Assembly (NCBI RefSeq): GCF_004102945.1
Contig: NZ_CP019384.1
Span: 630,001 to 662,000, forward strand
Origin: Candidatus Velamenicoccus archaeovorus
Lineage (GTDB): Bacteria; Omnitrophota; Gorgyraeia; Velamenicoccales; Velamenicoccaceae
Direction of reading: 5' to 3'
Length of the DNA stretch: 32,000 nt
Position numbers and translations under genes: made by a program
The notes under the pieces: model-generated
The model's database searches: none
What the model was told of the DNA's origin: nothing
Seen by the model: only the letters and a program-made list of their open reading frames with translations
Part shown: piece after piece, positions 1,326-25,393 of the stretch
Layout of the letters: every line of letters begins with the position of its first letter
How positions within the stretch are numbered: position 1 is the first letter of the stretch

Positions 1326-1863
1326 GTAAGATGGGTAACACTAGGAGAAATAGGGAAGATTGTTAGGGGGACTGCCATTACAGCAAAGGAAGCGACAGGT
1401 GGAAAAATTCCGGTAGTTGCCAATGCGCCTAAAGCCATTTATTTTCATGGTAAAAGTAACAGAAGTGGAGAAACAATCGTTATTGCTAGATCTGGAGCTT
1501 ATGCTGGGTTAGTCAGTTTCTGGGATGAACCGATCTTCCTCACTGATGCATTCAGCGTTCATGTGGAGTCTACTTTGCTCAAAACCAAATTTGTTTATTA
1601 CTTATTGAAGCAAAAACAGGAAACTATCCACTTCATGAAGAAAGGTAGTGGAGTGCCGCATGTTCGAGCAAAAGAGTTTGAATCTTACCGTATCCCCATT
1701 CCTCCTGTCGCCGAACAAGAGCGCATTGTTACCATTCTCGATAAATTTGACACACTGGTAAATGATATTTCTGTCGGCTTACCGGCGGAAGTGAACGCCC
1801 GGCGCAAACAATACGAATACTACCGGGACAAGTTGCTTACTTTTAGTCCATTGGAAGAAGAAT

Positions 1864-4800
1864 ATGCCAAGCAATAAAAAATACAATTTAGTAGCGGAAA
1901 ACCCGCAAAGCACCGTGGTGGCGGAATATACACCTCAGTATCGTACCGCAAAGGCGTACCAGAGCGAGGCGGAACTGGAGCGCGCTTTTATTGAGCAGTT
2001 AGGATCACAGGCGTATGAGTATTTGTCCATTGCCTCTGAAACTGATCTCGTGCTTAATCTGCGCAAACAACTGGAAAAGCTGAATGATTTCACCTTTTCC
2101 GATGCGGAATGGGAGGCGTTTTTTGCCGAAGAGATCGCCAACCCTAATCAAAGTATTGCTGAAAAAACAGCCACTATTCAGGAAGACTACATTAAAAATC
2201 TAAAATGTGATGACGGAACGGTTAAGAATATCTATCTGTTCCGCAAAGACAAGATCCACGAAAACAATTTACAGGTGATCAATCAATACACCACCGAAGA
2301 AGGCCAAAGATCCAACCGCTATGATGTAACGGTGCTGGTCAATGGCTTACCGCTTGTGCATATTGAGCTTAAACGGCGCGGGGTGGCAATTCAGGAAGCG
2401 TTCAATCAGATTAACCGTTACCAACGTGAGAGTTTTTGGGCTGGCTCCGGGCTCTTTGAATATGTACAAGTTTTTGTCATCTCCAATGGCACGCATACCA
2501 AATACTACAGCAATACTACGCGCTCCGAACATATCAAAGAATCTATCGAAGGATCTGTTAAGAAAGGGAAACGCTCGAGCAACAGCTTTGAGTTTACCAG
2601 CTGGTGGGCAGACGCGACTAACAGACCCATTACAGATCTCGTAGATTTTGCCAAAACTTTTTTTGCCAAACACGTGCTTCTCAATATCCTTACCCGCTAC
2701 TGTGTGTTCACCGCTGAAAAACAGCTTTTAGTGATGCGGCCTTATCAGATCGTGGCGACAGAGAGGATATTGAGCAAAATCGAAGTCAGCACCAACTATA
2801 AAAAACTCGGCACTGTGGAGGCTGGCGGATATATCTGGCACACCACCGGATCGGGTAAAACCTTGACCAGTTTCAAGACAGCCCAACTGGTGAGCAAGCT
2901 GCCCTATGTTGACAAAGTGCTTTTTGTCGTTGACCGCAAAGACCTTGATTATCAAACCATGCGTGAATACGACAAGTTTGAAAAAGGCGCGGCTAACAGC
3001 AATACCAGTACGGCGATATTAAAACGTCAGCTTGAAGACTCAAATGCGCGTATTATTATCACCACAATTCAAAAACTTGACCGGTTTATAGGGCACAACA
3101 AGGGACACACAATTTTTAACGGCCACATAGTGCTGATTTTTGATGAATGCCACCGCTCGCAGTTTGGCGAGATGCACGCTGAGATTACTAAAGCGTTTAA
3201 AAGCTATCACCTTTTCGGTTTTACCGGCACGCCGATCTTTGCCGTGAATGCTTCTGCCGGTGGGCGTCCCGATTTTAAAACTACCGCGCAGGCTTTTGGC
3301 GATAAATTGCACACCTACACTATTGTGGACGCTATTGCCGACAGAAATGTTTTGCCGTTTAAGGTGGATTATGTTTCTACCGTGCGTGAAGCCGAGGATA
3401 TTGAAGATAAAAAAGTGCGTGACATCGACCGGGAAGCAGTGCTTGCCGCGCCGGAACGGCTGGCAAATATTGTGAAATATATCCGCGACCATTTTGACCA
3501 GAAAACCAAGCGAAACAGTTTTTACAAACTCAAAGACCGGAGACTATCGGGGTTCAACTCCATTTTTGCCGTTTCTTCCATCGACGCGGCCAAGAAATAC
3601 TACGCGGAATTTCAACGACAGTTAAAAGACGCGCCGAGTGATAAAAAACTGAAAATAGCGCTTATTTACAGCTTTGGCGTAAACGAGGAAGAAATTGACG
3701 GCGTGATAGATGAAAACTCCGAAGACACCAGCGGGCTGGACAAAAGCTCAAGAGATTTTCTTGAGAACGCCATCAAAGACTACAACGTCATGTTTGGGAC
3801 ATCCTACGACACTTCTTCTGATAAATTTCAGAATTACTATAAAGATGTCAGCGAACGCGTAAAGAATCGAGAAGTGGATATTCTGCTGGTGGTCAATATG
3901 TTTTTGACCGGCTTTGACGCAACTACGCTCAATACCTTATGGGTGGATAAGAATCTGCGCTTGCATGGTTTATTGCAGGCATATTCTCGCACAAATCGTA
4001 TTTTAAACACCGTCAAGACGTTCGGAAACATTGTTTGCTTTCGCAATTTGGAAAAAGCGACCAATGAATCCATTGCCCTCTTTGGCGATAAGGAAGCCAG
4101 CGGGATTGTGCTGTTAAAATCGTATGACGAATACTACAACGGCTACAAAGATGGCGACAAGGAAGTCCGTGGATATAAAAGTCTGGTTGAAGAGCTTTTA
4201 ACAAAATTTCCGGTTGGCGAGCGCATTGTTGGAGAACAAAATCAAAAGAGTTTTATCCGGCTGTATAGCGCGATTTTACGGGTGAGAAATATCTTGATTA
4301 CTTTTGACGAATTTAGCGGCAATGAAATTCTAACTGAGCGGGACCTTCAGGATTATCACAGCGTCTACATTGACCTTTACAACGAGTTTCGCAAGGCAGA
4401 CGAAGGCGAAAAGGAAAATATCAACGATGACATCGTGTTTGAAATGGAGTTAATTAAGCAAATTGAGATCAATATTGATTATATTTTGGGGCTTGTCAAA
4501 AAGTACCATGAAGATCATATCAAGAACCGTGAACTGCTTATCGACATTAACAAGGCAATCGACTCAAGCGTTGAACTGCGCAACAAAAAAGATCTCATCA
4601 ACCAGTTTATCGCTTCGCTTGATGCTCATTCGGTCGTGGATGAAGACTGGCAGAAGTATGTGGAGAAGAAAAAGATTGAGGAGCTGGAAGATATTATTAA
4701 ACATGAAAACCTTGATCACGACGAAACCTATAAATTTGTGCGAAATGCATTTCGTAACGGCAGTGTCGCAACCACAGGCACTGCTCTGGCAAAAGTTTTA

Positions 4801-4917: not shown

Positions 4918-5179
4918 AGATGACTTGGAGCTTTTGAAATGGCAGAATTGCCTTAGGCGAAAGGAAACCTCGGTAGATTCAAAATACCTCCTGCCTTTCT
5001 ATCGCCCTCTGGGTTGGGCGTGGTGGTGGAATTGATGGGGTTGGAGTTGATGGGGGCATACGGTAGCCTTCGGGCGGTGCGAAGAAACCGCCCCAAAAAA
5101 ACTCCCGTATGCCCGGGTGCGTAACGCGCTCATACATAAACAGGTTAACGGATGAAAGCCGTGTGATTGTAAAAAACGC

Positions 5180-5208
5180 TTGACAAATACTGTATTACGC
5201 TGTACGCT
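5180..5208 (+). promoter_or_regulatory. Candidate sigma70 promoter of the XRE gene (TTGACA-N17-TACGCT); the mRNA would be nearly leaderless
   Basis: TTGACA lies at 5180-5185 and TACGCT at 5203-5208. The ATG at 5218 has no Shine-Dalgarno sequence upstream. Confidence 0.4.
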
Positions 5209-5217
5209 TATAACTAC

Positions 5218-5589
5218 ATGAGTAACGAATTTGGGAAGAAGATAAAGCAGGAACGGCTTCATCTTGATTTAAGCCTTCGTAAAGTTTGCGAAGCCGTATT
5301 TAGTGACAAGAAAAAACCGATATCTGTATCATATCTTAATGATATCGAGCAGGGGTATCGGAATCCCCCCGATAGTAAAATAATTGTTCAACTAGCCAAA
5401 GTCCTAAAACTTGAGCCTCAAGATCTTTTGAATTTGGCGGGGAAGGTTCACCCTATTATTGAGGATGTAAGCAAGAAAACAGAAGTTGGCGTTCTCTTTC
5501 GGAAGATAGCTGAGCATATTGAACGCGATCCTGGATTCGCTGCAAAAATCCAGGAACAGCTTGATAAAAATAAGGATGATCAAAAATGA
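5218..5589 (+). CDS. XRE-family helix-turn-helix transcriptional regulator (CapH-like position)
   Basis: 123 aa. The N-terminal segment KIKQERLHLDLSLRKVCEAV...SYLNDIEQG looks like an HTH_XRE domain. Its stop overlaps the start of the downstream metallopeptidase gene (ATGA). Confidence 0.75.
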   Translation: MSNEFGKKIKQERLHLDLSLRKVCEAVFSDKKKPISVSYLNDIEQGYRNPPDSKIIVQLAKVLKLEPQDLLNLAGKVHPIIEDVSKKTEVGVLFRKIAEHIERDPGFAAKIQEQLDKNKDDQK

Positions 5590-6305
5590 TGCGATGGATT
5601 GACGATGATCAAAGTGTCTATGGCCGCCGGCTCATCGCTACAGGCATAGATATAGATGAGGCTATGGAAATAAAATATCTGGAATTTTTTAATGGTAAAT
5701 GTGACATTGATCATCCAGCCCTTGACATCGAGCGCTTTATAGATGAAAATTTGAGAAAAGATAACATTGAATTTGAACCGGAGGCGACTGAGTTACAACA
5801 TAATGCTTTGGGGGCTACAAAGTTTAACCCGGATGGATCTCGATTGATTCAAGTTAATGCCAAACTTTATCGGCAAAGGAATTCAACAGCGCTAAAAGGC
5901 CGTTTCAGGTTTACGTGCGCTCATGAAGTGTTCCATGCCTTATTTCATGATAAGCTTTTTCGTAGCGAGGGTCATTTGAAATGTTTCGAACATCATATTC
6001 AGGAAGATATGGTTGAACCAGAGAAAAAATCGAATGATTTCATCGAGTGGCAAGCTAACCGAGGAGCGGCGGCGTTGTTAATGCCAGGATCAATTTTTAA
6101 AGAAAACGTTAAGCGAATCCGCGCCATATCTCACGATCACGAATCGTTAGTGCGAGATTTAGCGTCTCGTTTTGATGTGTCTAGGCAATCGGCACTTATT
6201 CGGCTGCAGACGTTTCGATCCGTGGCTGTGCGCGAAGATGATTTCAATCTGGAAAATGACGGCATTGATAGTTACCAAGATGCCCGGAAAAGAACCTGGA
6301 ATTAG
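5586..6305 (+). CDS. ImmA/IrrE-family zinc metallopeptidase (CapP-like position)
   Basis: 239 aa with an HExxH motif (CAHEVFHALFH). It is translationally coupled to the XRE gene, which is the classic XRE plus ImmA/IrrE pairing. Confidence 0.8.
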   Translation: MMRWIDDDQSVYGRRLIATGIDIDEAMEIKYLEFFNGKCDIDHPALDIERFIDENLRKDNIEFEPEATELQHNALGATKFNPDGSRLIQVNAKLYRQRNSTALKGRFRFTCAHEVFHALFHDKLFRSEGHLKCFEHHIQEDMVEPEKKSNDFIEWQANRGAAALLMPGSIFKENVKRIRAISHDHESLVRDLASRFDVSRQSALIRLQTFRSVAVREDDFNLENDGIDSYQDARKRTWN

Positions 6306-6324
6306 GAAAATTTTTTTGATTAAA

Positions 6325-6345
6325 TTTTACGCAGTTAGCGTAAAA
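6325..6345. promoter_or_regulatory. Perfect 8-5-8 inverted repeat TTTTACGC-AGTTA-GCGTAAAA (candidate operator or RNA hairpin)
   Basis: Seen directly in the intergenic region between the ImmA-like gene and the DUF2188/Ubl operon. Confidence 0.35.
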
Positions 6346-6395
6346 GAACAATAACCTTAAACTAAGGAGACTTGTTAACATAAGAGGAGGAGTAA

Positions 6396-6629
6396 ATGGC
6401 AGAACGAAAACGAGTATGGGTTTCACCAGACGGTAAAGGCGGATGGGATGTTAAAACGCAAGGTGCCCAGCGGGCCGCCGGTAATTACGAGGACAAAACA
6501 GACGCATTATCAAAAGCAAAGGAGGTCGCGAAGAATGCACCCTTAGGACAGGTGGTTGTTCAAGGGCGAGATGGAAAAATCCAAACCGAATATACATATG
6601 GCAAAGACCCAGAGCGCTTCCCAGGTTAA
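6396..6629 (+). CDS. Small DUF2188-like protein
   Basis: 77 aa behind a strong RBS (AAGAGGAGGAG). The pattern WxV...GAQRAAGNYEDKTDALSKAKEVA...GRDGKIQTEYTYGKDP matches my memory of DUF2188. Confidence 0.6.
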   Translation: MAERKRVWVSPDGKGGWDVKTQGAQRAAGNYEDKTDALSKAKEVAKNAPLGQVVVQGRDGKIQTEYTYGKDPERFPG

Positions 6630-6659
6630 TACACAGGGCAACTGAAAGGAGAAAGAGTC

Positions 6660-6923
6660 ATGGAAAATCAAGGACAGGGACACAATAAGCAAGTCACGAT
6701 TATAGTAAATGCTCGCCCAGAAACGGTGGCGAAAGACGATATATCTTATAGTGAGGTTGTCGCTTTGGCCTTTCCGAATCCGCCAACCGGCGATAATGTT
6801 TCGTTTGTTGTTATGTACCGTAGGGGCCACGGCGATAAGACGCAAGGGACTCTTGTCCAAGGCCAAACAGTCAAGGTAAAGGAGGGGATGATATTTGATG
6901 TCTCACCAAATAATAAGTCGTAG
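6660..6923 (+). CDS. Multiubiquitin-type ubiquitin-like (beta-grasp) protein
   Basis: 87 aa with RBS GAAAGGAGAAAG. VTIIVNARPETVAKDDISYSEVVALAF...VSFVVMYRRG...GTLVQGQTVKVKEGMIFDV resembles the prokaryotic Multiubiquitin domain. It sits directly upstream of, and overlaps, the E2-E1 gene. Confidence 0.6.
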   Translation: MENQGQGHNKQVTIIVNARPETVAKDDISYSEVVALAFPNPPTGDNVSFVVMYRRGHGDKTQGTLVQGQTVKVKEGMIFDVSPNNKS

Positions 6924-8082
6924 TCCAGACCTTAAGCGACTTCGCGATGAAGGCTATGATATAGAGGTCAAGTCAGGATATCTTTTTATCAAGGATGTTC
7001 CATACGTCGATTCAGATAAGAAGATAGCGCGCGGCACCTTGGTATCAAAATTAACTGTAGCTGGGGACATGGCTGTGCCTCCTGATACCCATGTCGCTTA
7101 TTTTATTGGGGGGTCTCCGTGTGATGCGAATGGATCTCCTCTACAAAAAATTATCAACTCGAGCCAAAAACATAAGCTGGATAATGTTATCGAAGTTGAT
7201 CATACGTTTTCTGCGAAGCCTATGCCAGATGGAAAATATAAGGATAATTGTGATAAGGTAAAAAAATACATTGCTATGATTTCCGGTCACGCTCAGGCGG
7301 TAGATCCAAACGTAACGGCGGCAACCTTCCCAGCTTTGCCGACAACAGGAGAGGATAAATCATTCTTTAATTATATCGATAGCGCTTCTAGCAGAGCCCA
7401 GATCGGGGCGGCTACGAGCAAGTTGGAGATCGGCGGCATTGCAATCGTAGGAGTCGGTGGGACTGGTTCGTATATTTTGGATTTGGTGTCGAAAACTCCG
7501 GTAAGTGAGATTCACATTTTCGACAATGATAAGTTCCTGAATCACAACGCATTTAGAACGCCGGGTGCTCCTTCTATAGATGAATTGCGAAGGCAGCCCA
7601 AAAAGGTATTTTATTTGAGGGACATTTACTCAAGGATGCATCGGCATATTATTTCGCATGACGTTTATGTGGATGCGTCAAACGTAGATCTTCTTAAGCC
7701 AATGAAGTTCGTATTCATTTGCCTTGATAAAGGGGGCATAAAAAAGTGTATCGTTGAAAAGTTAGAAGAATGGGGTACTCCATTTATTGACGTCGGCATG
7801 GGCCTTCAGCTCGTTGACGAATCATTGACTGGTGTGCTTACCGTAACTGCCAGTACAATTGAGCAGCGCAAGCACATTAAAGATAGGATTTCTTTTTCAG
7901 AAGATAACGAAGGGAATGAGTATTCCCAAAACATACAAATCGCCGATTTGAACGCTCTTAATGCGGCTCTCGCTGTCGTCAAATGGAAGAAGATGTGTGG
8001 ATTTTATAAGGATCTTGAAAAAGAGTTCTTCTGTGCATATTCAGTGAACGGTAATACTCTAGTTAATGAAGACAAATCATGA
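6895..8082 (+). CDS. E2-like N-terminal domain fused to a ThiF/E1-type adenylyltransferase
   Basis: 395 aa. The C-terminal half has the E1 nucleotide-binding motif IAIVGVGGTGSYILDLV...IHIFDNDKFLNHNAFR. About 170 aa at the N-terminus are not E1. The multiubiquitin / ThiF / DUF6527 gene neighbourhood is a recognised trio. Confidence 0.75.
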   Translation: MMSHQIISRSPDLKRLRDEGYDIEVKSGYLFIKDVPYVDSDKKIARGTLVSKLTVAGDMAVPPDTHVAYFIGGSPCDANGSPLQKIINSSQKHKLDNVIEVDHTFSAKPMPDGKYKDNCDKVKKYIAMISGHAQAVDPNVTAATFPALPTTGEDKSFFNYIDSASSRAQIGAATSKLEIGGIAIVGVGGTGSYILDLVSKTPVSEIHIFDNDKFLNHNAFRTPGAPSIDELRRQPKKVFYLRDIYSRMHRHIISHDVYVDASNVDLLKPMKFVFICLDKGGIKKCIVEKLEEWGTPFIDVGMGLQLVDESLTGVLTVTASTIEQRKHIKDRISFSEDNEGNEYSQNIQIADLNALNAALAVVKWKKMCGFYKDLEKEFFCAYSVNGNTLVNEDKS

Positions 8083-8525
8083 AACGAACCAAAATATTAA
8101 CATATCGATTCCTTGAGTATATCCCTCGCGATATAGAGGAAGGGGTGATTTACATTTCAATGACATTTTCGACGGCGATTCATAAGTGCTGTTGTGGATG
8201 TGGTCAAGAGGTTGTAACTCCATTTGGCCGGACAGATTGGCAGTTGACTTTTGATGGCGAATCAATTTCACTGGATCCATCGATTGGAAATTGGAGTTTT
8301 GATTGTAAGTCACACTACTGGATAAGACATAATAAAATTATATGGGCACCTCGTTGGTCTAAGAAAAAAATTGATGCTAATAGGGCATACGATAAGCGGT
8401 TGAAGGATAGATATTTTATGGCTGTACAAGAGAAAGAGAATAGAAGTGATCGGAAGATAAGGCTTGCGGATTGGCTTGCTGAAAAGAATATATTGAAGCG
8501 GTTGAAAAACAATAGCTTAAGGTAA
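8079..8525 (+). CDS. DUF6527-like small protein (CxCGCG motif; candidate peptidase of the Ubl system)
   Basis: 148 aa, translationally coupled to the E1 gene (ATGA overlap). It contains HKCCCGCGQEV and the conserved-looking SIGNWSF.C.SHYWI. The family assignment is from memory. Confidence 0.5.
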   Translation: MKRTKILTYRFLEYIPRDIEEGVIYISMTFSTAIHKCCCGCGQEVVTPFGRTDWQLTFDGESISLDPSIGNWSFDCKSHYWIRHNKIIWAPRWSKKKIDANRAYDKRLKDRYFMAVQEKENRSDRKIRLADWLAEKNILKRLKNNSLR

Positions 8526-8647: not shown

Positions 8648-8932
8648 GTCCTCCTTTCTTTTTCTTCGCCAAAAATACTCAATGCTTTAATTTCGTCAAC
8701 AAAATTCCGGAAATAATTCGTCTCCGTTCTTGTGGTCTGCCTCAAGAGCGGCTTCGCCCCTTCGGGGAGTCCTCAATTTTTTCCTCAGAATCCAAGAAGG
8801 TTCGTTCTCTCCCTCGTCGTTCTCTCTCCTTCGGCCAATCCTTGTTTTATTGACTAAACCGGCGCTTGTGGTCTGCCTCAAACGCCTTTAAAGGCCTTGA
8901 GTTCTCCTTTTTGGCGTAAAAGAAAGGAGGAC
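8648..8932 (+). ncRNA. Structured module A (285 nt): candidate cis-regulatory leader RNA or ssDNA-folding element upstream of the SpoVG-like gene
   Basis: The 15-nt GTCCTCCTTTCTTTT (8648-8662) is the exact reverse complement of AAAAGAAAGGAGGAC (8918-8932), which contains the SD. Further pairings are 8668-8675/8908-8915, 8677-8682/8897-8902 and 8691-8704/8845-8858. Internal hairpins at 8724-8751 and 8861-8886 both have the loop TGGTCTGCCT. Confidence 0.5.
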
Positions 8933-9413: not shown

Positions 9414-9701
9414 GTCTCCTTTCTGTTTGTTTTCGCTTTTCTAACCTTAAGCCCTGATTTTCGTCAATAAAATCACGAAAATAATTCGTCTCCGCTTTTG
9501 TGGTTTGCCTCAAAAGCGGCTTCGCCCCTTCGGGGAGTCCTCAATTTTTTTCGTGACCCAGGAAGACTCTCTCACTTCATCCGTCGTTCGTTCGTCTTCG
9601 GGCATACCTGTTTTTTTTGACCAAAACCGCCGGTTGTGGTCTGCCTCAACCGGCTTCAGGAGCTTAGGTCAAGACTTTTTCAGCGAAAACAGAAAGGAGA
9701 C
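9414..9701 (+). ncRNA. Structured module B (288 nt), paralogue of module A, upstream of the 94-aa ORF
   Basis: GTCTCCTTTCTGTTT (9414-9428) is the exact reverse complement of AAACAGAAAGGAGAC (9687-9701), which contains the SD. Hairpins at 9492-9519 (loop TGGTTTGCCT) and 9629-9654 (loop TGGTCTGCCT). A block of about 90 nt (9458-9548) is nearly identical to 8691-8779. Confidence 0.5.
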
Positions 9702-9992: not shown

Positions 9993-10171
9993 AGGTATCG
10001 GAGTTTCCCGAAAGCTTGAGGAAGATCATCTTGTCCAGCGTGGATGAGATGAATTTAGAGCAAGAAGTGACAATGGCGCAAGTGAGTATTTCCTTTCATG
10101 TGGGCCAGGAGATCCACGTTGAAGACTGGGAATACAAGGCAGGCGGCAGAGAAGGAGGAGTCAGATGTTGA
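9989..10171 (+). CDS. Hypothetical small protein (60 aa)
   Basis: Its start and stop overlap the neighbouring genes in an operon-like arrangement. No recognisable motif. Confidence 0.4.
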   Translation: MKVSEFPESLRKIILSSVDEMNLEQEVTMAQVSISFHVGQEIHVEDWEYKAGGREGGVRC

Positions 10172-10506
10172 CGGAAAGCGGGTTACGGCAATTCACAGGC
10201 ACGACGCAATGGTTCAGGCACTTGAGCGGCTATCTTTATACGGACGGCGTGCAATATGTGGCTGAACAAGGCGGCGCCTACTGGCTTTTGGACAAAATCC
10301 TGTTCATAACCCGGGCAAAGGCGAGGCTGCAGGAGTTCGGCGTCTGGAAACTGTCCGTGCGCGAAGACCATACAGCTCAGCTTGTCTGCGAAGACGGCAA
10401 CTATCACAAGCTCTACGATGAAAAGATCGACTGGACGGATTTTCCGCTCAAGAAGATCGAGCTGTGGTTTGAAAACGGCGTCCTGATACTGCCGAGCGAA
10501 CACTAA
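10165..10506 (+). CDS. DUF6876-like protein (a family seen on conjugative elements)
   Basis: 113 aa. FTGTTQWFRH...YLYTDGVQYVAEQGGAYWLLDKI matches my memory of DUF6876. Confidence 0.5.
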   Translation: MLTESGLRQFTGTTQWFRHLSGYLYTDGVQYVAEQGGAYWLLDKILFITRAKARLQEFGVWKLSVREDHTAQLVCEDGNYHKLYDEKIDWTDFPLKKIELWFENGVLILPSEH

Positions 10507-10529
10507 ATCAAAGGGAGGAGGTGAATGCT

Positions 10530-10760
10530 ATGCAATTAAACGATCTAAATGGGAAAACCACCATCAAGGTCGCAGGAGAGGAGGTCAGCGTCAATGCTTC
10601 TGATTCTGTCAAGGACACCTTAAAAAGGCTCCTTGAAGAGAAGGGCATTGATTCCTTCACGATCCTGGTTGACGGCGCTGAGGTGGCCTCAACGAGTGAT
10701 CTGCCTGAAACCTTCGCGGATCACGAAATCGAAGTGCAAAGATACGTCAAGGCAGGCTAA
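10530..10760 (+). CDS. Small ubiquitin-like beta-grasp protein ending in ...VKAG (PRTRC protein C / Prok_Ub-like)
   Basis: 76 aa from the ATG at 10530 (GGGAGGAGG RBS; the track starts at GTG 10521). It has a C-terminal glycine. Its size and position directly upstream of the E2-like, E1 and JAB genes fit a Ubl. Confidence 0.6.
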   Translation: MQLNDLNGKTTIKVAGEEVSVNASDSVKDTLKRLLEEKGIDSFTILVDGAEVASTSDLPETFADHEIEVQRYVKAG

Positions 10761-10777
10761 AGAAAGGAGAAAAACGC

Positions 10778-10814
10778 GGGAAAGAGGGGAGAGGTTCCCC
10801 TCTTTCCCTATTTT
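10778..10814 (+). terminator. Strong hairpin plus T-tract between the Ubl and E2-like genes (intra-operon terminator or attenuator)
   Basis: GGGAAAGAGGGGA (10778-10790) pairs perfectly with TCCCCTCTTTCCC (10796-10808) across the loop GAGGT. TATTTT follows. Confidence 0.6.
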
Positions 10815-10824
10815 AGAGGTCAAA

Positions 10825-11427
10825 ATGATTGATGAGAAGCTAATCCACAACGCAAGGCCGGCGTCCAAGATCGTAGAAAGTATTGACGAATCCTGGCGCC
10901 AATTTGTCGAGGACTTGAAAGAACAGACGTTCAAGATTCCCTTTAAGGGAAACTACAGGTGTTGTGTTAAAGATGGCTTTTTCCACGTTGAAGCCTACGT
11001 GGGCCTTCTTGTGATCGACAAGCTCTACGATGGCCACAATACCTATCTGCTCAAGACCCCTATTAAGCATGAGCCTTTTACGCTCTACGGCGAGTATGAC
11101 CAGACAGGCGACTTTCGCGATTTTGTTTCGGATCCTGAAATCGGCTGCCACTATCTAGCCATGAGCGATATGGACGCCGGCCGCAAGATCTGCACAGGAG
11201 ATATCCAGATCAACAATGCGAGCCTGAATTCGCTTGAAGCGCTCAAGGCCATGGCGCTTGAAGTCATCAAGTCTTTCAGGCTCATTAACCTGACGTCCTT
11301 GGGCACCGTGATATTGCCGGAGGAGCATTCTGCTCTCAGAGATGTCTTATCCGATAAGTCCAAGGACACGGACACAAAGACAAAGAGCCTCCTGGACGCC
11401 GGGTTAATTGAACCTCTATTAACATAG
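10825..11427 (+). CDS. E2-like (UBC-fold) protein candidate (PRTRC protein B-like)
   Basis: 200 aa from the ATG at 10825; the track ORF 10633 start overlaps the Ubl gene and the hairpin. GRKICTGDIQ resembles the E2 active-site G-x-ICLDIL context. It lies between the Ubl and E1 genes. Confidence 0.5.
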   Translation: MIDEKLIHNARPASKIVESIDESWRQFVEDLKEQTFKIPFKGNYRCCVKDGFFHVEAYVGLLVIDKLYDGHNTYLLKTPIKHEPFTLYGEYDQTGDFRDFVSDPEIGCHYLAMSDMDAGRKICTGDIQINNASLNSLEALKAMALEVIKSFRLINLTSLGTVILPEEHSALRDVLSDKSKDTDTKTKSLLDAGLIEPLLT

Positions 11428-11438
11428 GAGAAGAATCA

Positions 11439-12383
11439 ATGCCTCAAGGAGCCATTTATTCGCGTCAGGAGTTGATCGACCAATTGGACATACCGCAAAT
11501 CGCCACAGTCGTAGGATGCGGCGGGACAGGGTTCTGGACCGCGGTGTTTCTGGCGATGAGCGGGGTTGAAGAATTAGTCCTGATCGACCGCGATATCATC
11601 GAGATATCCAATCTGAACAGGCTGCTTTTGGAAGAGCGGCATGTGGGAAAGAAAAAGATCGAGGTTTTAAAAGAGGTCCTTTCAGATATCAGGAAATCTA
11701 CGCGGATCGAAATCCACGATATGCGCATCGAAAAATCTCCGGACTGTCAGGTTCTGCGCGGCAAGATATTCTGTTGCACGGACAATTTGAAAAGCCAACA
11801 GCTCATCTGCGCTTACTGTAAAAAGAACGATTTAATCTACCAGAGAATAGGCTATGACGGCACGATTTTGAACGTTTCCAGGGCTTTTCCCTTGTCTTTT
11901 GAAGAGACGGAAGAACGGCAGGGTTATACGTTTACACCTTCCTGGGTTGTTCCTGCGGTATTGGCAGCAGCGGCCGGCGTTGCCTCGGTCCTGTATAAGC
12001 ACCTGTCCTTGATGGAAGATTTGGGCAAGCTGCACATACAGCATTCTTCCTTTGTTCCTGAGAAGATTCTGGATGAAGCCAAGCAGGAGCATGAAGATTA
12101 CATCACGGATCACATTGATGATTATCTTCCAAGCGGTTACGGCTATTGCGACGACTGCACCCACTGCGATGACTGCAACAGGGTGGATCCGGAAGATCAT
12201 TGTTCAGATTGCGATAAGGAATATACCCAGGCCGATCTTGACGAAAAGATCGCCGAAGAAAAAGAAGAATGGCTGAAAGAAACGATCGAGGAGATCAAAT
12301 CAGGCAAGGTCTCCAGCGAAGAGTTAAAAGAAGCCTTAAAGCAATGGCTAAAAGCCGCCAAAAGGAGGTCTAAAAATGAATAA
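11439..12383 (+). CDS. ThiF/MoeB/E1-family adenylyltransferase with a Cys/Asp-rich C-terminal tail
   Basis: VVGCGGTGFWTAVFLAMSGVEELVLIDRDIIEISNLNRLLL is the E1 Rossmann/adenylation signature. The C-terminal CDDCTHCDDC...HCSDC cluster is a likely zinc site. Confidence 0.85.
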   Translation: MPQGAIYSRQELIDQLDIPQIATVVGCGGTGFWTAVFLAMSGVEELVLIDRDIIEISNLNRLLLEERHVGKKKIEVLKEVLSDIRKSTRIEIHDMRIEKSPDCQVLRGKIFCCTDNLKSQQLICAYCKKNDLIYQRIGYDGTILNVSRAFPLSFEETEERQGYTFTPSWVVPAVLAAAAGVASVLYKHLSLMEDLGKLHIQHSSFVPEKILDEAKQEHEDYITDHIDDYLPSGYGYCDDCTHCDDCNRVDPEDHCSDCDKEYTQADLDEKIAEEKEEWLKETIEEIKSGKVSSEELKEALKQWLKAAKRRSKNE

Positions 12384-13080
12384 TATCCAAAACAACGTCA
12401 GCAATATCTTGAATGTCAGTATCAAGAATTATACGGATTGCGGCTGGTGCTTGGATAAGGCCAACGAAGAGATCTTGAATATTCCCTGGTCCATCTGGAG
12501 CCAGTGGCTGTTTATGTCCCAAAGGATGGGCAAAAAAGAGTGGGGAGCGATATTTTGGGTCAAGGATAACACCGTCACCGGCTTTAAGATTCCCAAGCAG
12601 GAGGTCAATGCGGTTGAGTGCGCTTTCAAGGAAGAATTGGGCGGGGACGGAATTATCCATTCCCACCACGACATGGGCGCTTTTCATTCAAGCCAGGATG
12701 ACGCCCACGCGCGCAATCTTTATCGGTATTCAATAGTCCTTTCTAATTCCGATGGAAGCATCTGTACAAAAAAACTTAAGCTGCCCTGCGGTTCTTTCGG
12801 TTACGTCCAGGTGCGGCTCGGCATCATTGATCTGCCGAAAATTGATTTGGCAAAAATCGGCGAGAAAAAGAGAGAATTGATCTCGGAGCAACCCGAAGAG
12901 GAATTATTCCGGCAGGCTCGATATGACGAGTTGCAAATGCAGTGCGAAGAATGCGTAAGGTCTGATTGCCATGGTTGCGAGATTTTTCTTGCTATGCAGG
13001 AAATAGAAGCCGGAATGTTCGGGACCGGATTTGATGGATTCCAGAGACAGACACGGGAAGAGCCGAAATGTGGTCGATAG
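12376..13080 (+). CDS. JAB/MPN (JAMM) metalloisopeptidase (PRTRC protein A / BilD-like)
   Basis: HSHHDMGAFHSSQDD fits the JAMM motif HxHx7Sx2D exactly. RBS AAAGGAGG. The start overlaps the E1 stop. There is a C-terminal CxxCx4CxxC cluster. Confidence 0.85.
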   Translation: MNNIQNNVSNILNVSIKNYTDCGWCLDKANEEILNIPWSIWSQWLFMSQRMGKKEWGAIFWVKDNTVTGFKIPKQEVNAVECAFKEELGGDGIIHSHHDMGAFHSSQDDAHARNLYRYSIVLSNSDGSICTKKLKLPCGSFGYVQVRLGIIDLPKIDLAKIGEKKRELISEQPEEELFRQARYDELQMQCEECVRSDCHGCEIFLAMQEIEAGMFGTGFDGFQRQTREEPKCGR

Positions 13081-13338: not shown

Positions 13339-14124
13339 ATGGAGAAAGTTTTCATTTTCGATGAGGACATCAAAACACGGTCTTTCCTTTATGAGCTGAT
13401 TTCGGAACTGGGCTGGAGCGTGCACACGGTCGCCTCCGGCTCCGTGATCCTTGATTTGCTGAAGAACGAGCGCCCCGCCTTGATCATCCTCGCCGAGCAG
13501 GAGGGGGAGTTCTGCGGTTTTTCCCTTGTCAAGAAGATCCGCACATTCGATAAAGACGTAAAGATCATCGTTTTATTCAATTCCGCCTCCGGCCCCGGCC
13601 GGGATCCGGGTTTAGTCTCAAGAGAAGCAGATATCAGCACCTATCTTCCCAAGGATTTCCAGGATCCGCGCATCATTAAAGAAATTATCTCCGTCCTCAA
13701 TCAACAAATCTATATCAAGCCTGAAGGCATGACGATCCGCGGGAATATCCTCGTTGTCGATGATGAAATAGAAGGCAGGGAGACGGTGGCAGGTTTCTTG
13801 CGCAGGAGGGGTTTTGGCGCGGATACCGCCTTAAGCGGCGAAGAATGCGTAGAAATGATCAAACAAAAACCATATGATCTTGTTCTTCTTGATATTTCAT
13901 TGGCGGGCATGGACGGCCTGTTGACCCTCAAGCGGATCAGGGAGGTCAATGCGAACGTCAAGGTGATCATGAGCACGGGCCTCGCCAATCCTGACCTCGT
14001 TGAGCAGGCGAAGTCTCTTGGGGCGGATGATTATCTGGTGAAGCCTTTTAATTTCGGCAGCCTGGAAGCTTCTTTGATTGCTTTGCTGATCAGCAAAAAA
14101 AGGCAAAGCCAAGATGGTGTATGA
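13339..14124 (+). CDS. Stand-alone response regulator with two receiver domains (the first looks like a pseudo-receiver)
   Basis: The second domain is ILVVDDE...DLVLLDISLAGMDG...KVIMSTG...DYLVKPF. The first domain has ALIILAEQEG where the phospho-acceptor Asp is expected. Confidence 0.85.
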   Translation: MEKVFIFDEDIKTRSFLYELISELGWSVHTVASGSVILDLLKNERPALIILAEQEGEFCGFSLVKKIRTFDKDVKIIVLFNSASGPGRDPGLVSREADISTYLPKDFQDPRIIKEIISVLNQQIYIKPEGMTIRGNILVVDDEIEGRETVAGFLRRRGFGADTALSGEECVEMIKQKPYDLVLLDISLAGMDGLLTLKRIREVNANVKVIMSTGLANPDLVEQAKSLGADDYLVKPFNFGSLEASLIALLISKKRQSQDGV

Positions 14125-14319: not shown

Positions 14320-14388
14320 TGGTATATAATCTGATATAATCTCATATAGTTGAAATACGAGTTTAACTTGAGAATCACGGGAGTCCTT

Positions 14389-15441
14389 ATGCCAAATGCC
14401 TTTAACCAAAGGTTGGAGAATCTCCCACCGGAAATCTGGTCAAAAATCACCAAGATAGAAGAATTAAAAGGCCAATGGATTATAGGCGCGCGCTTAAGCC
14501 CTCAGGTCCTAGGGCGCCTCAAAAGATCGGTTCTGGTTACCTCAACCGGTGCTTCCACGCGTATCGAAGGATCCAGGCTTTCTGATGAAGACATAGAAAA
14601 GCTTATGCGCGGGATCTCAATACAGAAATTTGCCGACCGCGACAAGCAGGAAGTAAAAGGATACTATGAATTGCTCCAGAATGTCTTTGACTCTTGGAAG
14701 CACATCCGTTTTTCCGAAAATACAACCAAGCATTTCCATAAAGAGCTCTTAAAATACGTCCAAAAAGACAGACTTCATCGGGGTGAGTATAAAAAAACCG
14801 AGAATAGAGTCCATATGGTTGATACGCAAGGGAAGTCTGTCGCCGTTCTTTTTGATACCACGCCGGCATACCTTACGCCCAAAGAAATGCAGGAGTTAGT
14901 CGAGGCGGCGCAAAATGCCTTTAAAGAAAATAAATATCCTCCTTTGTTGATTATAGGGAATTTTTTGGTTGAGTTCTTAAAAATTCATCCGTTCCAAGAC
15001 GGCAACGGGCGCATTTCGCGCATCCTTACGAATCTGCTTTTATTGCAGGCCGGTTATCAGTATATGCCTTATGTCTCGCACGAAAAGTTAATAGAAGACA
15101 ACAAAGCCGACTACTATCTGGCGTTAAGAAAAAGCCAGAAAACCTTAAAGACCAAGCCCAATATCGTCCCTTGGCTAGATTTCTTCCTTTCGCTGGTTTA
15201 TAAGCAGTCTCAAATGGCAGTTGAACTATTGTCTAAGGAAAACATTGAAAAATTGCTGTCGCCTAAACAAATCGCTGTTTGGGAATTTTTACAGACGGTT
15301 GCTGAAGCATCGCCGAAAGATATCTCGAAGAACGCCAAAGTTGCCCAGCCCACGGTAGCCCAGGCCTTGGATAAGCTAATTCGCCTTAAAAAAGTTGAGC
15401 GCATTGGACTCGGGAGGAGCACAAGATACCGAAAGATTTAG
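14389..15441 (+). CDS. Fic/DOC-family protein with a C-terminal winged-helix domain
   Basis: Contains the Fic motif HPFQDGNGRISR. The ATG at 14389 (MPNAFNQ...) is preferred over the track's TTG at 14350. Confidence 0.9.
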   Translation: MPNAFNQRLENLPPEIWSKITKIEELKGQWIIGARLSPQVLGRLKRSVLVTSTGASTRIEGSRLSDEDIEKLMRGISIQKFADRDKQEVKGYYELLQNVFDSWKHIRFSENTTKHFHKELLKYVQKDRLHRGEYKKTENRVHMVDTQGKSVAVLFDTTPAYLTPKEMQELVEAAQNAFKENKYPPLLIIGNFLVEFLKIHPFQDGNGRISRILTNLLLLQAGYQYMPYVSHEKLIEDNKADYYLALRKSQKTLKTKPNIVPWLDFFLSLVYKQSQMAVELLSKENIEKLLSPKQIAVWEFLQTVAEASPKDISKNAKVAQPTVAQALDKLIRLKKVERIGLGRSTRYRKI

Positions 15442-15969: not shown

Positions 15970-18585
<2,616 letters not shown>

Positions 18586-18610
18586 ACCGGATGTAAAAAA
18601 AGGGAGAATA

Positions 18611-18976
18611 ATGGTCGACAATGCGAAGAATTCCAAGGCTTATGAATCGGCATTTGATACGGCGATGGAAGTATTTTGGCTGACTAAAGAATATCCCAAG
18701 GAAGAGTTGTGTTCGTTGGCGGATCAGCTCAGAACGGCTTCCAGGTCTGTGGCGGTCAGCATAAGAGAGGGTCTCGTAAAAAAGCCGCATTACAGGGATA
18801 TTTTTGTAAGGCATGTGATCGATGCTTTGGGTTTTTGTGAAGAGACAAAAACGTGGCTTGATTTTTCCTTCGAGTGCAGATATCTGGGGCGGGATAAATA
18901 CGGCGAGTTGTCCAGGAAATACGACGAGATAAGGATCATGCTGTATCAATCCCTCGGCAGGAATCCTCGGCTTTAA
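18611..18976 (+). CDS. Four-helix-bundle protein (23S rRNA intervening-sequence protein family)
   Basis: From the ATG at 18611: AYESAFDTAMEVFWLTKEYPKEELCSLADQLRTASRSVAVSIREG... This is the typical family pattern (fPkeE..L..QlrRA..Si..NIaEG). Confidence 0.75.
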   Translation: MVDNAKNSKAYESAFDTAMEVFWLTKEYPKEELCSLADQLRTASRSVAVSIREGLVKKPHYRDIFVRHVIDALGFCEETKTWLDFSFECRYLGRDKYGELSRKYDEIRIMLYQSLGRNPRL

Positions 18977-19114
18977 AGCCGAGGAGAAATGCGGTATTGC
19001 CTCGGGAGGGAACCCCCAGGGGATTCCACTTGGTCAAAAATTGGAAGAAATGGTGAAGGCGTGATCCGGCAGGGAGCTCCGGAGATACGAAAAACAACTC
19101 AAGGAACGAAAGAC

Positions 19115-20716: not shown

Positions 20717-20820
20717 TTTTTTGTTCTTTTACACTTTGGGGTTTTTGGGGGAATTAGTGGGTAAGCCGGTGAACAGGTTAGCCGGTGAATCGGTGAAATG
20801 AATAAACCAGAAAAGAAGGT

Positions 20821-21240
20821 ATGGGAAAGGTAACCCCAGTTGTGGAGAAGCACTACAGGCTGATTTTATGGACATTGCCCAAAATTGCCAACTTTCCAAA
20901 AGACCAAAGATTCCTGTTGGCCGACAGGATCGAGACGCTGCTTTTGGATGTGCTTCTGCTCTTGATCGAGGCGACATATTCGGCGGAGAAGAGGGAAATG
21001 CTGAAGAACGCCAATTTGAAAGTCGAGCAGATGAGATTTATGATGCGCATCGCCAAGGACATGGAATACGTGAATATCAAAGGTTATGACTTTTTCTGCG
21101 TTTCGCTTCTTGAAATAGGCAGGATGATAGGGGGTTGGAGAAAATCCGAGGAGGATAAACAAAACCAGAGTCCTTGTGTTCACGGATACAAGGAGCGGTC
21201 ACCGAAAGAAAGGGGTCCAGACGTCGTCACCTGTCCTTGA
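20821..21240 (+). CDS. avd: DGR accessory variability determinant (Avd), four-helix-bundle protein
   Basis: 139 aa. LPKIANFPKDQRFLLADRIETLLLDVL...IGRMIGGWRKS resembles bAvd. It lies immediately upstream of the TR and RT. Confidence 0.8.
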   Translation: MGKVTPVVEKHYRLILWTLPKIANFPKDQRFLLADRIETLLLDVLLLLIEATYSAEKREMLKNANLKVEQMRFMMRIAKDMEYVNIKGYDFFCVSLLEIGRMIGGWRKSEEDKQNQSPCVHGYKERSPKERGPDVVTCP

Positions 21241-21348
21241 CTTTTGTACAAGGTCGAGGCAAAAAGAGTTCGCCTGCCGCGCGGGAAAGCGGAACGCTTG
21301 CGGCGCGGCGAGGGTTGTAAAAAGGTGCGAGGTCGTAAAGCGTTGTCC

Positions 21349-21475
21349 GGCGGTTTCCGCGGCGGCAATTGGAATAATGACACATCGAACGCCCGCGTAT
21401 CAGACCGCAACAACGCGGCGAACACGAATTCGAATCGGAACAACAATAACGGAGGTCGGTTCGCCAAGACCCCTT
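21349..21475 (+). repeat. DGR template repeat (TR), adenine-rich with many AAC/AAT codons
   Basis: It translates as GGFRGGNWNNDTSNARVSDRNNAANTNSNRNNNNGGRFAKTP. It is homologous to VR1 and VR2 and sits 40 nt upstream of the RT start. Confidence 0.9.
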
Positions 21476-21514
21476 ACTTTCTCCTTATGGATCTTCAGCT
21501 AAGGCGAGGGAAAG

Positions 21515-25384: not shown

Positions 25385-25393
25385 CGTGGCCTC

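Follow-up and report, generated by a model that had tools for sequence, protein, structure and literature searches.

The analysis identified a cassette of six co-directional genes at positions 5180 to 8525 of the window (the whole 32-kb stretch of DNA that was analysed), the last three of which, bubA, bubBD and bubE, constitute, as judged from their sequences, a Bub operon of the classic Type II (6E.2) form. The cassette as a whole is very likely such an operon placed behind a CapH/CapP-like repressor-protease switch, with a DUF2188 gene as one accessory gene (Table 1). All six open reading frames claimed by a preceding sequence-only reading were present, and Pfam HMM searches matched every domain that it had named, in all six genes. 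From 5' to 3', the first two genes overlap by 4 nt, gaps of 90 and then 30 nt follow, and the last two junctions are overlaps of 26 and 4 nt.

Table 1 Genes, overlap and putative control elements of the cassette (window coordinates)
Feature	Position	Strand	Description
Putative promoter and putative degenerate operator copy	5180..5217	+	TTGACA 5180-5185; ATTACGCTGTACGCTTATA 5194-5212
CapH-like XRE/HTH repressor gene	5218..5589	+	123 aa; HTH_3, PADLOC capH, F-R motif
ImmA/IrrE-family (M78) zinc metallopeptidase gene	5586..6305	+	239 aa; Peptidase_M78, PADLOC capP
Perfect inverted repeat (candidate operator)	6325..6345	.	TTTTACGC-AGTTA-GCGTAAAA; M78-to-DUF2188 intergenic region
DUF2188 gene	6396..6629	+	77 aa; Pfam DUF2188, PADLOC PDC-S16
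bubA	6660..6923	+	87 aa; Multi_ubiq
bubBD	6898..8082	+	394 aa; DUF6791 + ThiF
bubA 3'/bubBD 5' dual-coding overlap	6898..6923	+	26 nt
bubE	8079..8525	+	148 aa; DUF6527

The bubA-bubBD-bubE trio

The combination of a multiubiquitin protein, an E2/E1 fusion and a DUF6527 protein, a computationally predicted ubiquitin-like system, matches exactly the Type II Bub class that Ye et al. defined (bioRxiv 10.1101/2024.11.21.623953; NSMB 2026). Sequence comparison found the full set of published Bub catalytic residues in BubBD and BubE, and the synteny of the three genes was shared, as were the 26-nt overlap and the Ser at the end of BubA, by 115 to 120 of 120 loci. The gene order is that of the Type II Bub operon of E. 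coli ZDHYS365, and both are without a JAB peptidase.

BubA matched Pfam Multi_ubiq (E = 5e-16) and resembled beta-grasp domain 3 of E. coli ZDHYS365 Ubl3 (PDB 9cd2; E = 4e-8), both proteins ending in KS; these matches support the earlier beta-grasp, multiubiquitin-like call. BubA is a single-beta-grasp ubiquitin-like protein (Ubl1), whereas E. coli BubA comprises three such domains (222 aa). The encoded Ser87 (...NNKS) of the protein studied here is predicted to be its reactive end. A C-terminal Gly-Gly is indeed missing, as the sequence ends ...SPNNKS. An encoded Ser (in KS, RS or QS) directly before the stop codon forms the end of BubA in 120/120 related loci, and native E. coli BubA (...DKS) was reported to yield ATP-dependent conjugates with BubBD alone (Ye et al.). 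Since the terminal Ser is encoded throughout and the native E. coli protein is conjugation-competent, C-terminal processing does not appear to be needed. The suggestion that the DUF6527-like protein matures the ubiquitin-like protein was thus not borne out; BubE has been described as a deconjugating Ser-His protease instead.

BubBD gave matches to Pfam DUF6791 (E = 1e-54) and ThiF (E = 2e-8) and to NCBIfam PRK06153.1-4 (E = 2.6e-174), which identify it as a fusion of an E2-like (DUF6791) and an E1 adenylation (ThiF) domain; it shares 38% identity with BubBD of E. coli ZDHYS365 (E = 4e-77). Catalysis is predicted to involve Ser105, assisted by His102 and Lys107, together with Arg220 and, in the crossover loop, Tyr342; the Ser/Lys/His E2 site, the adenylation Arg and the crossover Tyr are common to both proteins. 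S105, R220 and Y342 were invariant in alignment A1 and map onto S106, R219 and Y342 of E. coli BubBD, which were mutated experimentally by Ye et al.; K107 was at least 90% conserved in alignment A1 and H102 at least 90% in alignment A4. While the HMM matches uphold the E2-E1 fusion proposed before, a Foldseek search with the E2-like domain returned no significant UBC match (best E-value, 0.27), only weak ones to UEV, Rad6, Ube2N and Atg10.

The bubBD start conserved in the family is the ATG at 6898 and not the TTG at 6895, so the overlap with bubA and the protein length, formerly given as 29 nt and 395 aa, are corrected to the values in Table 1. A Shine-Dalgarno sequence, AAGGAGGGG, lies inside bubA at 6879-6887, 5' of this start, and the identical overlap was found in 115/120 loci, both bacterial and archaeal. 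This arrangement suggests that translation of bubA and bubBD is coupled, probably through the overlap.

BubE matched Pfam DUF6527 (E = 7e-26) and carries a charged C-terminal extension. Its predicted C4 zinc ligands (Cys37, Cys39, Cys41 and Cys76) and Ser68-His79 dyad, six residues invariant across 46 sequences, are the counterparts of C57/C59/C61/C99, S92 and H102 of Citrobacter BubE (bioRxiv 10.1101/2024.11.21.623953). BubE of the Type II Bub reference operon shares this zinc site and dyad, and the protein here is a predicted zinc-binding Ser-His protease of the DUF6527 family.

Regulator pair and candidate operators

CapH/CapP sits within a wider family that includes ImmR/ImmA and DdrO/IrrE. 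As in CapH/CapP of CBASS, an XRE-type HTH repressor (ca. 100-120 aa) is paired here with an HExxH metallopeptidase, upstream of an immune-type operon. The HTH protein matched Pfam HTH_3 (E = 1.4e-6) and, weakly but over its full length, PADLOC capH (E = 2.8e-3). It has an N-terminal HTH and, on its C-terminal helix, Phe94-Arg95; this F-R motif is conserved, in one column of the alignment, in most of the HTH partners linked to Bub and corresponds to the CapH cleavage site between F82 and R83 (Lau et al. 2022, bioRxiv 10.1101/2022.04.27.489752). The peptidase matched Pfam Peptidase_M78 (E = 4e-12), with HEVFH as the HExxH motif at residues 113-117, and PADLOC capP (E = 1.5e-19, over positions 16-153 of the 242-position profile), while its PDB matches, IrrE (8slm, 3dte) and CapP (7t5t), aligned only at chain residues 80-183. 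[quoted passage not shown] Lacking the GAF domain, the peptidase departs from canonical CapP and may be activated by a signal other than ssDNA.

The XRE/ImmA switch put forward in the sequence-only reading gains from the F-R motif and from the occurrence of CapH and CapP regulators in 31% of 544 catalogued Bub operons (Ye et al.), but its protease differs from the type member. CapH/CapP has been described as divergent (Lau et al. 2022), whereas the present pair is co-directional with the operon that it would regulate. Co-directional pairs are common among Bub loci, although the orientation, like the missing GAF domain, sets this locus apart from that of E. coli ZDHYS365.

The ATG start codon at 5218 has no Shine-Dalgarno sequence, and the transcript may therefore be leaderless. 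The block 5179-5230 was nearly invariant among the window and the related loci L040, L046 and L047, its two variable positions both lying in the spacer between the -35 element and the putative operator, while the sequence upstream of the block carries an indel. The palindrome at 6325-6345 occurs once without mismatch in the 32 kb, and the copy at 5194-5212 is one of only three imperfect matches (2-3 mismatches) to its 6326-6344 portion, making four matches in all versus 1.44 expected by chance. The palindrome was kept in L040-42 and L046-48, which have the same HTH protein, and was absent from the other 122 loci; together with the promoter copy, it was conserved only in loci with this HTH protein. 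These observations make 6325-6345 a candidate operator, ahead of the DUF2188 and Bub genes, to which the HTH repressor might bind.

The DUF2188 gene

The DUF2188 gene, located between the regulators and bubA, has no equivalent in the E. coli ZDHYS365 operon. Its product matched Pfam DUF2188 (E = 3e-17) and PADLOC PDC-S16 (E = 5e-20), and its AlphaFold2 model (pLDDT 81) shows a beta-beta-beta-alpha-beta-beta fold followed by a flexible tail ending ...DPERFPG, with no significant structural neighbours in the PDB. Roughly 5-9% of Type II Bub loci have DUF2188, either 5' of bubA or 3' of bubE, and it alternates in the same slot with DUF3892, which was there in six other Bub loci. The sequence-only reading had called the gene unexplained. 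Its association with HTH and metallopeptidase modules is already in the literature (Burroughs and Aravind 2020, as cited in Lau et al. 2022), but its recurrent placement inside Bub operons is new here, a link not previously described. In those modules with DUF2188 or DUF3892, the small DUF2188 protein likewise follows the HTH/metallopeptidase pair; the downstream cargo is a Bub operon in this locus and in at least nine other arrangements.

Our best guess is that DUF2188 is a stress- or nucleic-acid-sensing protein or an adaptor, acting alongside single-domain BubA. There is, however, an almost even chance that it is merely adjacent to the Bub genes, being either part of the HTH-M78 module or a defence candidate (PDC-S16) that acts independently as a single gene. 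The family, with ca. 5,000 clusters, is large and for the most part shows no linkage to E1 genes, and HTH-metallopeptidase-DUF2188 units without Bub exist, both at the related locus L048 and in cyclase/TIR and 'hypothetical' systems (Lau et al. 2022). Moreover, the slot is taken by DUF3892 or an HNH protein in other Bub loci, and an 82%-identical Bub trio lacks DUF2188, the DNA homology beginning exactly at the bubA ribosome-binding site. Against mere adjacency, the gene lies directly 5' of bubA on the same strand, with gaps of 0-125 nt, in 5/59 independent metagenomic loci; at another locus (L130) it follows and overlaps bubE; and two contigs carry it by Bub without an adjacent M78 gene (P0002 and, as far as this short contig shows, P0124). 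It was also enriched with short single-domain BubA (4/29 vs 1/64 loci; Fisher p = 0.03).

Genomic setting, role and proposed mechanism

The cassette immediately follows a Type I R-M system within an island of mobile or defence character; this neighbour, reported previously, proved real (HsdM fragment, HsdS and HsdR), and a DGR also adjoins the cassette. Such placement has been noted for Bub regulators (NSMB 2026), and the Type II Bub reference shares with this locus an association with CapH/CapP-like regulators and islands of that kind. The same set of six genes was found in the closest relatives, which are three contigs (93%) and one Omnitrophica MAG; the DUF2188 protein had a 99% match to a Ca. 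Omnitrophica MAG, by which the host probably belongs to an Omnitrophota-like lineage, unlike that of the E. coli operon. No Bub was found among 50,697 phage genomes searched, whereas 128 plasmids carried it.

The description of the cassette as a defence module was over-stated, as phage protection had been shown for no Bub operon as of 2024-2026. Bub may instead act in the stress response generally or serve a mobile element, in its maintenance or in competition, which we regard as possible but somewhat doubtful. In favour of this, Ye et al. could identify no Bub operon with a protective effect against phage in E. coli, as restated in 2026 (bioRxiv 10.1101/2024.11.21.623953; NSMB 2026). The cassette moves as a module within a larger conserved mobile block (at L046, SpoVG, DUF6876, ThiF/JAB and response regulator genes are syntenic), the Bub-bearing plasmids include conjugative and mobilizable ones, and DUF2188 is elsewhere fused to hemerythrin and other non-defence domains. 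Conversely, the R-M system and DGR immediately beside the cassette, the defence-type neighbours in relatives (SduA_C, SLFN/AlbA_2, nSTAND NTPase and HigB), CapH/CapP-type regulators typical of immune operons and the listing of DUF2188 by PADLOC as a defence candidate argue for defence.

Type I Bub (6E.1), Bil and Type II CBASS Cap2/Cap3 likewise use E1/E2-type adenylation and transfer of a protein C-terminus to targets and have a deconjugating peptidase partner. Unlike this locus, however, Type I Bub fuses Ubl to E2 and JAB to E1, and cleavage exposes its C-terminal Gly; Bil and CBASS rely on cysteines for catalysis and on JAB peptidases, and CBASS conjugates a CD-NTase instead of a Ubl. That the locus is a sulfur-carrier (ThiS/MoaD-ThiF/MoeB), Cap2-type (Type II CBASS/MBL) or Bil-type system has next to no chance and is effectively refuted by domain content: against weak matches to Pfam ThiF and, over the adenylation domain, NCBIfam ThiF and cap2_3, and weak PADLOC 'E1-E2' matches (1e-6 or weaker), stand the full-length match to PRK06153 (2.6e-174 vs 1e-5 for ThiF), the absence of a CD-NTase or cyclase, of a JAB gene within the cassette, of a rhodanese or Cys-containing domain and of a Gly-Gly terminus, and the DUF6791 and DUF6527 partners diagnostic of Bub.

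For a Type II Bub operon behind a CapH/CapP-like switch, we propose the following mechanism. The HTH repressor, bound to the palindrome and the degenerate promoter copy, would keep the cassette silent. Stress, which by analogy with CapP could be DNA damage or phage infection, would activate the M78 peptidase, which would cut the repressor between Phe94 and Arg95 and allow BubA, BubBD and BubE to be expressed, with DUF2188 co-induced. The conjugation chemistry has been shown for homologues and is inferred here from conserved residues. The C-terminal Ser87 of BubA would be adenylated by a BubBD dimer in an Arg220-dependent manner, and BubA would then be captured as an oxyester on Tyr342, passed on to Ser105 of the E2-like domain with the help of His102 and Lys107, and finally ligated to target lysines; BubE, through its zinc site and dyad, would take BubA off the conjugates. 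The cassette is a well-preserved case of an already described system, ordinary for its kind except for the extra DUF2188 gene.

Identity and catalytic sites of the cassette

The six co-directional open reading frames (ORFs) read from the sequence alone were recovered at the positions listed in the table, all on the + strand, and profile HMMs confirmed every domain that the sequence-only reading had guessed for them. Multi_ubiq, DUF6791 plus ThiF, and DUF6527 (Pfam) are encoded by consecutive overlapping genes, and no JAB peptidase gene was found within 5180-8525. This trio of a ubiquitin-like protein (Ubl), an E2-E1 fusion, and a DUF6527 protein is a Type II Bub operon, formerly 6E.2. In the Bub systems of E. 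coli ZDHYS365 and Citrobacter, the Ubl is conjugated via oxyesters, formed with a Tyr of the E1 crossover loop and then with a Ser of the E2, and BubE (DUF6527) is a zinc-binding Ser-His protease which strips the conjugates; ATP-dependent conjugation via oxyester intermediates has been demonstrated for these two homologues only (Ye et al., bioRxiv 10.1101/2024.11.21.623953).

Features of the window, with the matches or remarks that belong to them
Feature	Position	Strand	Match or remark
hsdS ORFs, two	671-1366, 1563-1877		Methylase_S in each (671-1877)
Putative HTH-gene core promoter, TTGACA	5180-5185
Degenerate repeat copy	5194-5212		three mismatches allowed
HTH protein	5218-5589	+	Pfam HTH_3 1.4e-6, residues 9-70; PADLOC capH full length but weak, 2.8e-3
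Peptidase	5586-6305	+	Pfam Peptidase_M78 4e-12; PADLOC capP 1.5e-19; HEVFH at 113-117
Perfect inverted repeat	6325-6345		between peptidase gene and DUF2188
DUF2188 (PF09954)	6396-6629	+	Pfam 3e-17, 63 bits vs cut-off 22; PADLOC PDC-S16 (defence candidate label) 4.9e-20
bubA	6660-6923	+	Pfam Multi_ubiq 5e-16; 87 aa
Internal Shine-Dalgarno	6879-6887		within bubA
bubBD	6898-8082	+	Pfam DUF6791 1e-54 and ThiF 2e-8; NCBIfam PRK06153.1-4 2.6e-174; 394 aa
bubE	8079-8525	+	Pfam DUF6527 7e-26
Direct ~210-nt copies, two	8678-8888, 9446-9656		73-87% identical, 768 nt apart
DUF6876	10165-10506		ahead of second cluster, as is SpoVG
79-aa protein ending ...YVKAG	10521-10760		second cluster
~200-aa protein	~10825-11427		second cluster; no family match
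ThiF-family E1, 314 aa	11439-12383		second cluster; Pfam 2e-24
Prok-JAB protein, 234 aa	12376-13080		second cluster; weak PRTRC_A match
Response regulator	13339-14124		two receiver-domain matches; between ThiF/JAB cluster and DGR
Fic/DOC-family protein	14350-15441		between ThiF/JAB cluster and DGR
Diversity-generating retroelement (DGR)	~18500-25600
23S_rRNA_IVP/bAvd-like proteins, two	18530-18976, 24255-25115		DGR
FGE-sulfatase/C-type-lectin-fold candidate targets, two	18989-20716, 22931-24484		DGR
bAvd	20821-21240		DGR
Reverse transcriptase	21515-22672		DGR

The catalytic residues of these homologues have counterparts in the window. BubBD was 38% identical (BLASTP, E=4e-77) to E. coli BubBD, the sequence of which was taken from Table S2 of the Bub preprint; R220 and Y342 correspond to E. 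coli R219 and Y342, and the E2-like motif H102-T-F-S105-A-K107 aligned to HWFS106NK108 with no catalytic Cys at the site. S105, R220, and Y342 were invariant and K107 and H102 at least 90% conserved in alignments of 29 and 37 sequences, and the crossover stretch carrying the invariant Tyr342, ...RISFSEDNEGNEYSQNIQ, is free of Cys. In BubE, the C4 zinc site C37/C39/C41/C76 and the dyad S68-H79 were invariant in 46 sequences and match C57/C59/C61/C99, S92, and H102 of the Citrobacter protein. The Bub family reportedly functions without catalytic cysteines. To our knowledge, the Bub pathways are the sole ubiquitin-like conjugation pathways with exclusively oxyester (Tyr, Ser) intermediates.

The AlphaFold2 model of the BubBD E2-like domain (pLDDT 84) showed a minimal UBC-like topology (alpha-alpha/beta4/loop with Ser105/alpha). 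Since the Foldseek matches of this model in the PDB were non-significant (best E=0.27; weak UEV, Rad6, Ube2N, and Atg10 matches with TM-scores of at most 0.36), the N-terminus is assigned as UBC on the basis of Pfam DUF6791 and of structures already published. Besides, this domain has an invariant Pro-Cys (Pro74-Cys75, 7117-7122), with the consensus His-Pro-Cys and Ser-Pro-Cys in the window; it is kept in E. coli BubBD (EHPCHP) and recalls the HPN motif of canonical E2 enzymes.

Type II CBASS (Cap2/Cap3) differs from the cassette in its CD-NTase substrate, Bil in its separate E2 and IAD-AAD-CYS E1, and both in their JAB peptidases and the catalytic Cys of E1 and E2; none of these is encoded in the cassette, and matches of the CBASS or Bil type in the cassette were weak and confined to the adenylation core. 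A ThiS/MoaD-ThiF/MoeB system would have a Gly-Gly carrier, an E1 with rhodanese or Cys, and biosynthetic neighbours, whereas these features are missing here, BubA ends in ...NKS, and the ThiF equivalog models (NCBIfam) scored far under their cut-offs on BubBD. By homology, Bub conjugation chemistry is predicted for the cassette with high confidence. The locus is a further example of a known operon type and brings no new chemistry. With its minimal Ubl and complete regulator, it is a compact, intact example, and modest novelty lies in the comparative points, namely the terminal Ser common to all loci, the overlap of 26 nt, the slot for DUF2188 or DUF3892, the peptidase without GAF domain, and the candidate operators.

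BubA terminus, gene junction and regulators

It had been proposed from the sequence that BubA requires C-terminal processing by the DUF6527 protein. This proposal was not borne out, as a Ser is encoded directly before the stop codon in 120 of 120 loci, and native E. coli BubA (...TQTDKS) formed ATP-dependent conjugates with BubBD alone. The survey covered 42 and then 120 loci from bacterial and archaeal genomes and metagenomes, with BubBD 43-93% identical; the endings were KS (94 loci), RS (15), and QS (11). Window BubA matched beta-grasp domain 3 of PDB 9cd2 (4e-8), which has the same KS end; in Type II Bub, it is the free BubA C-terminus that goes into the E1 site.

The overlap of bubA and bubBD, earlier given as 29 nt, had to be corrected to 26 nt, the conserved bubBD start being the ATG at 6898. 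Counted from this ATG, the overlap (6898-6923) was exactly 26 nt in 115 of the 120 loci, in bacteria and archaea alike, and window bubA contains an internal Shine-Dalgarno sequence. The overlap is a family-wide dual-coding junction, which probably couples translation. Neither the terminal Ser nor the overlap is discussed in the Bub preprint (bioRxiv 10.1101/2024.11.21.623953). Because the former is universal and the latter nearly so, constructs and annotation should keep the native BubA terminus and the bubBD ATG start.

In the HTH protein, the HTH is of XRE type and the C-terminal helix behind it contains VLF94-R95-K; F94-R95 sits in a conserved [VA][LA]-F-R-[KR] column in the alignment of the HTH partners of 19 Bub loci. 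CapP, the metallopeptidase of the CBASS pair CapH/CapP, cuts the repressor CapH at F82|R83, within helix 1 of the CapH C-terminal domain; the conserved F-R at the equivalent of this site makes the window repressor fit CapH. The peptidase (HEVFH) aligned with IrrE and CapP over the peptidase and linker regions only. The matches to CapP (7t5t, 291 aa) and IrrE ended at chain residues ~178-183 (query ~206-214), and the PADLOC capP profile was covered at positions 16-153 of 242 only. [quoted passage not shown] CapH plus CapP are present in 31% of 544 catalogued Bub operons (bioRxiv 10.1101/2024.11.21.623953), and, judged by its sequence, the window peptidase is CapP-like in the broad sense of that catalogue, not a canonical CapP; its activating signal may differ from that of CapP, for which ssDNA or DNA damage stimulates cleavage of the repressor.

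The CapH/CapP pairs of Lau et al. lie upstream and are divergent (bioRxiv 10.1101/2022.04.27.489752), while the window pair is co-directional with its operon. A phmmer census near Type II Bub operons found at least 11 co-directional and at least 11 divergent HTH/M78 pairs among 83 loci, both being lower bounds, as divergent pairs that are too remote (e.g. those of loci L057 and L094) were missed. Since at least 11 of the 83 loci share its orientation, a co-directional pair is nothing out of the ordinary around Bub.

The intergenic region that separates DUF2188 from the peptidase gene holds a perfect inverted repeat, TTTTACGC-AGTTA-GCGTAAAA. This repeat was kept in the six loci that have the same HTH, among them L048, a locus without Bub genes, and was absent from the other 122 loci. 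A second, degenerate copy with up to three mismatches, a level at which ~1.4 matches per 32 kb are expected by chance, lies within the putative core promoter of the HTH gene. This promoter is almost invariant, and no Shine-Dalgarno sequence stands ahead of the ATG of the gene. This arrangement suggests autoregulation by the repressor and a second candidate operator ahead of the DUF2188-Bub genes, and the candidate two-operator layout resembles the two-site layout demonstrated for CapS at a Bub operon. A consensus scan for promoters and terminators found no clear terminator after bubE and missed the conserved TTGACA of this promoter because of its weak -10 element. No Rfam RNA elements at gathering thresholds and no tRNAs were found in the window.

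Genomic setting

The restriction-modification system seen beside the cassette is indeed present: the upstream Type I system comprises a fragment of HsdM together with HsdS and HsdR, the last of which ends at 4917. The hsdS gene is apparently split, which may reflect a frameshift or phase variation. A mosaic island of mobile or defence type makes up the window; in it, the Type I system is followed by the Bub cassette, SpoVG and DUF6876, an unrelated ThiF plus JAB cluster, a response regulator, a Fic protein, and a diversity-generating retroelement. DNA homology of the cassette with its relatives starts at ~4989, just past hsdR. The Omnitrophica contig L046 shows synteny from the HTH gene through to the response regulator, but has a different left flank.

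Several further observations concern this island. The ThiF plus JAB genes form a second cluster of ubiquitin-like type (10521-13080), 2 kb downstream of the cassette, which is likewise syntenic in L046. Two direct ~210-nt copies lie upstream of the SpoVG gene and of the gene after it. Both have a TTGAC-type box, neither matched Rfam, and they may be repeats of a promoter or leader region; the antisense 'MRQTT...' ORFs within them look spurious. The GC content climbs from ~42% to 55-60% at ~16 kb of the window.

BubBD matches were found on 128 plasmids. Carriage of Bub by phages was considered and set aside, as BubBD had no hits among 50,697 phage genomes and only six loci in IMG/VR. According to the authors of the Bub work, in 2024 (bioRxiv 10.1101/2024.11.21.623953) and again in 2026, no Bub operon has been demonstrated to protect against phage.

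DUF2188 and the slot ahead of bubA

DUF2188 and DUF3892 have already been tied to HTH plus metallopeptidase modules and to defence islands (bioRxiv 10.1101/2022.04.27.489752), and the association of DUF2188 with Bub is missing from the published Bub table (bioRxiv 10.1101/2024.11.21.623953). The same six genes as in the window were found in relatives from three samples at 93% BubBD identity and in a Ca. Omnitrophica MAG, and a 91% relative has DUF2188-bubA-bubBD-bubE with no adjacent M78 gene. A DUF2188 84% identical to that of the window lies ahead of a 61%-identical BubBD, and one 87% identical follows an HTH-M78 pair without any Bub. A Bub trio at 82% lacks DUF2188; its DNA homology with the window is limited to 6646-8374, starting at the bubA ribosome-binding site and reaching as far as the BubE core.

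An independent sample comprised 80 loci from metagenomes, at BubBD identities of 50-60%; 59 of them had enough flank. DUF2188 was directly upstream of bubA in five of the 59 (L057, L062, L094, L106, and L119, the last with the full six-gene layout of the window) and in 0 of 34 genome Bub loci; BubA is short and has a single domain in four of the five (Fisher p=0.03). In another locus, L130, DUF2188 follows bubE and overlaps its end. Overall, DUF2188 recurs in ~5-9% of Type II Bub loci; BubBD as a whole forms more than 8,000 clusters. In six loci (L005, L067, L069, L071, L072, and L075), all of which are Type II Bub with co-directional HTH-M78 pairs, the slot between the M78 gene and bubA is filled by a DUF3892 protein of 94 aa that is conserved among them (Pfam 6e-18); in L110, it is filled by an HNH protein. 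Homology of DUF2188 and DUF3892 was rejected (HHalign probability 0.65%), and they are positional analogues only.

The DUF2188 model (pLDDT 81, beta3-alpha-beta2) had no significant PDB neighbour. Kinship with YegP/DUF1508, which is fused to some Bub Ubl1, was also considered and rejected: there was no PDB sequence hit, no Foldseek E value was better than 0.2, and YegP was not among the matches. As for DUF2188-Ubl fusions, all 61 close BubA relatives were single-domain, and no ORF matched both HMMs. The DUF2188 family forms ~5,000 clusters at 50% identity. Among the best 150 diverse representatives (P0242-P0391), the tail is typically a flexible YG-x-DP-x3-6-Gly-COOH, 113 ending in Gly and 109 of those 113 in DP-x3-6-G-COOH. 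A terminal Gly occurring across so many contexts is a family trait, and it was discarded as a Bub-specific feature. In fusions with hemerythrin, Cys-rich, membrane(-anchor), or HTH N-termini, DUF2188 is usually the C-terminal module; this pattern suggests that a free C-terminus would be important for its function.

In our reading, DUF2188 recurs in Bub operons under CapH/CapP control, either as an accessory or as the cargo encoded by the first gene. The stronger reading, that it is a genuine, so far unlisted accessory of a subset of Type II Bub, chiefly of systems with single-domain BubA, is allowed by its position-independent linkage (before bubA in the window and five loci, after bubE in L130) and fits its usual C-terminal place in fusions, but we consider it unlikely. 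Possible roles for such an accessory would be an adaptor or sensor, or a preferred conjugation target. Most speculatively, DUF2188 might be a second substrate or pseudo-substrate, the conserved ...DP-x4-Gly-COOH tail of which would enter the BubBD or BubE active site in parallel with the [K/R/Q]-Ser-COOH of BubA; this version is disfavoured because a terminal Gly occurs throughout the family and because most DUF2188 genes lack an E1 gene beside them. As recurrent occupants of the slot ahead of bubA, DUF2188 and DUF3892 are candidate missing partners of Bub, which might explain the lack of a phage phenotype with bare Bub trios.
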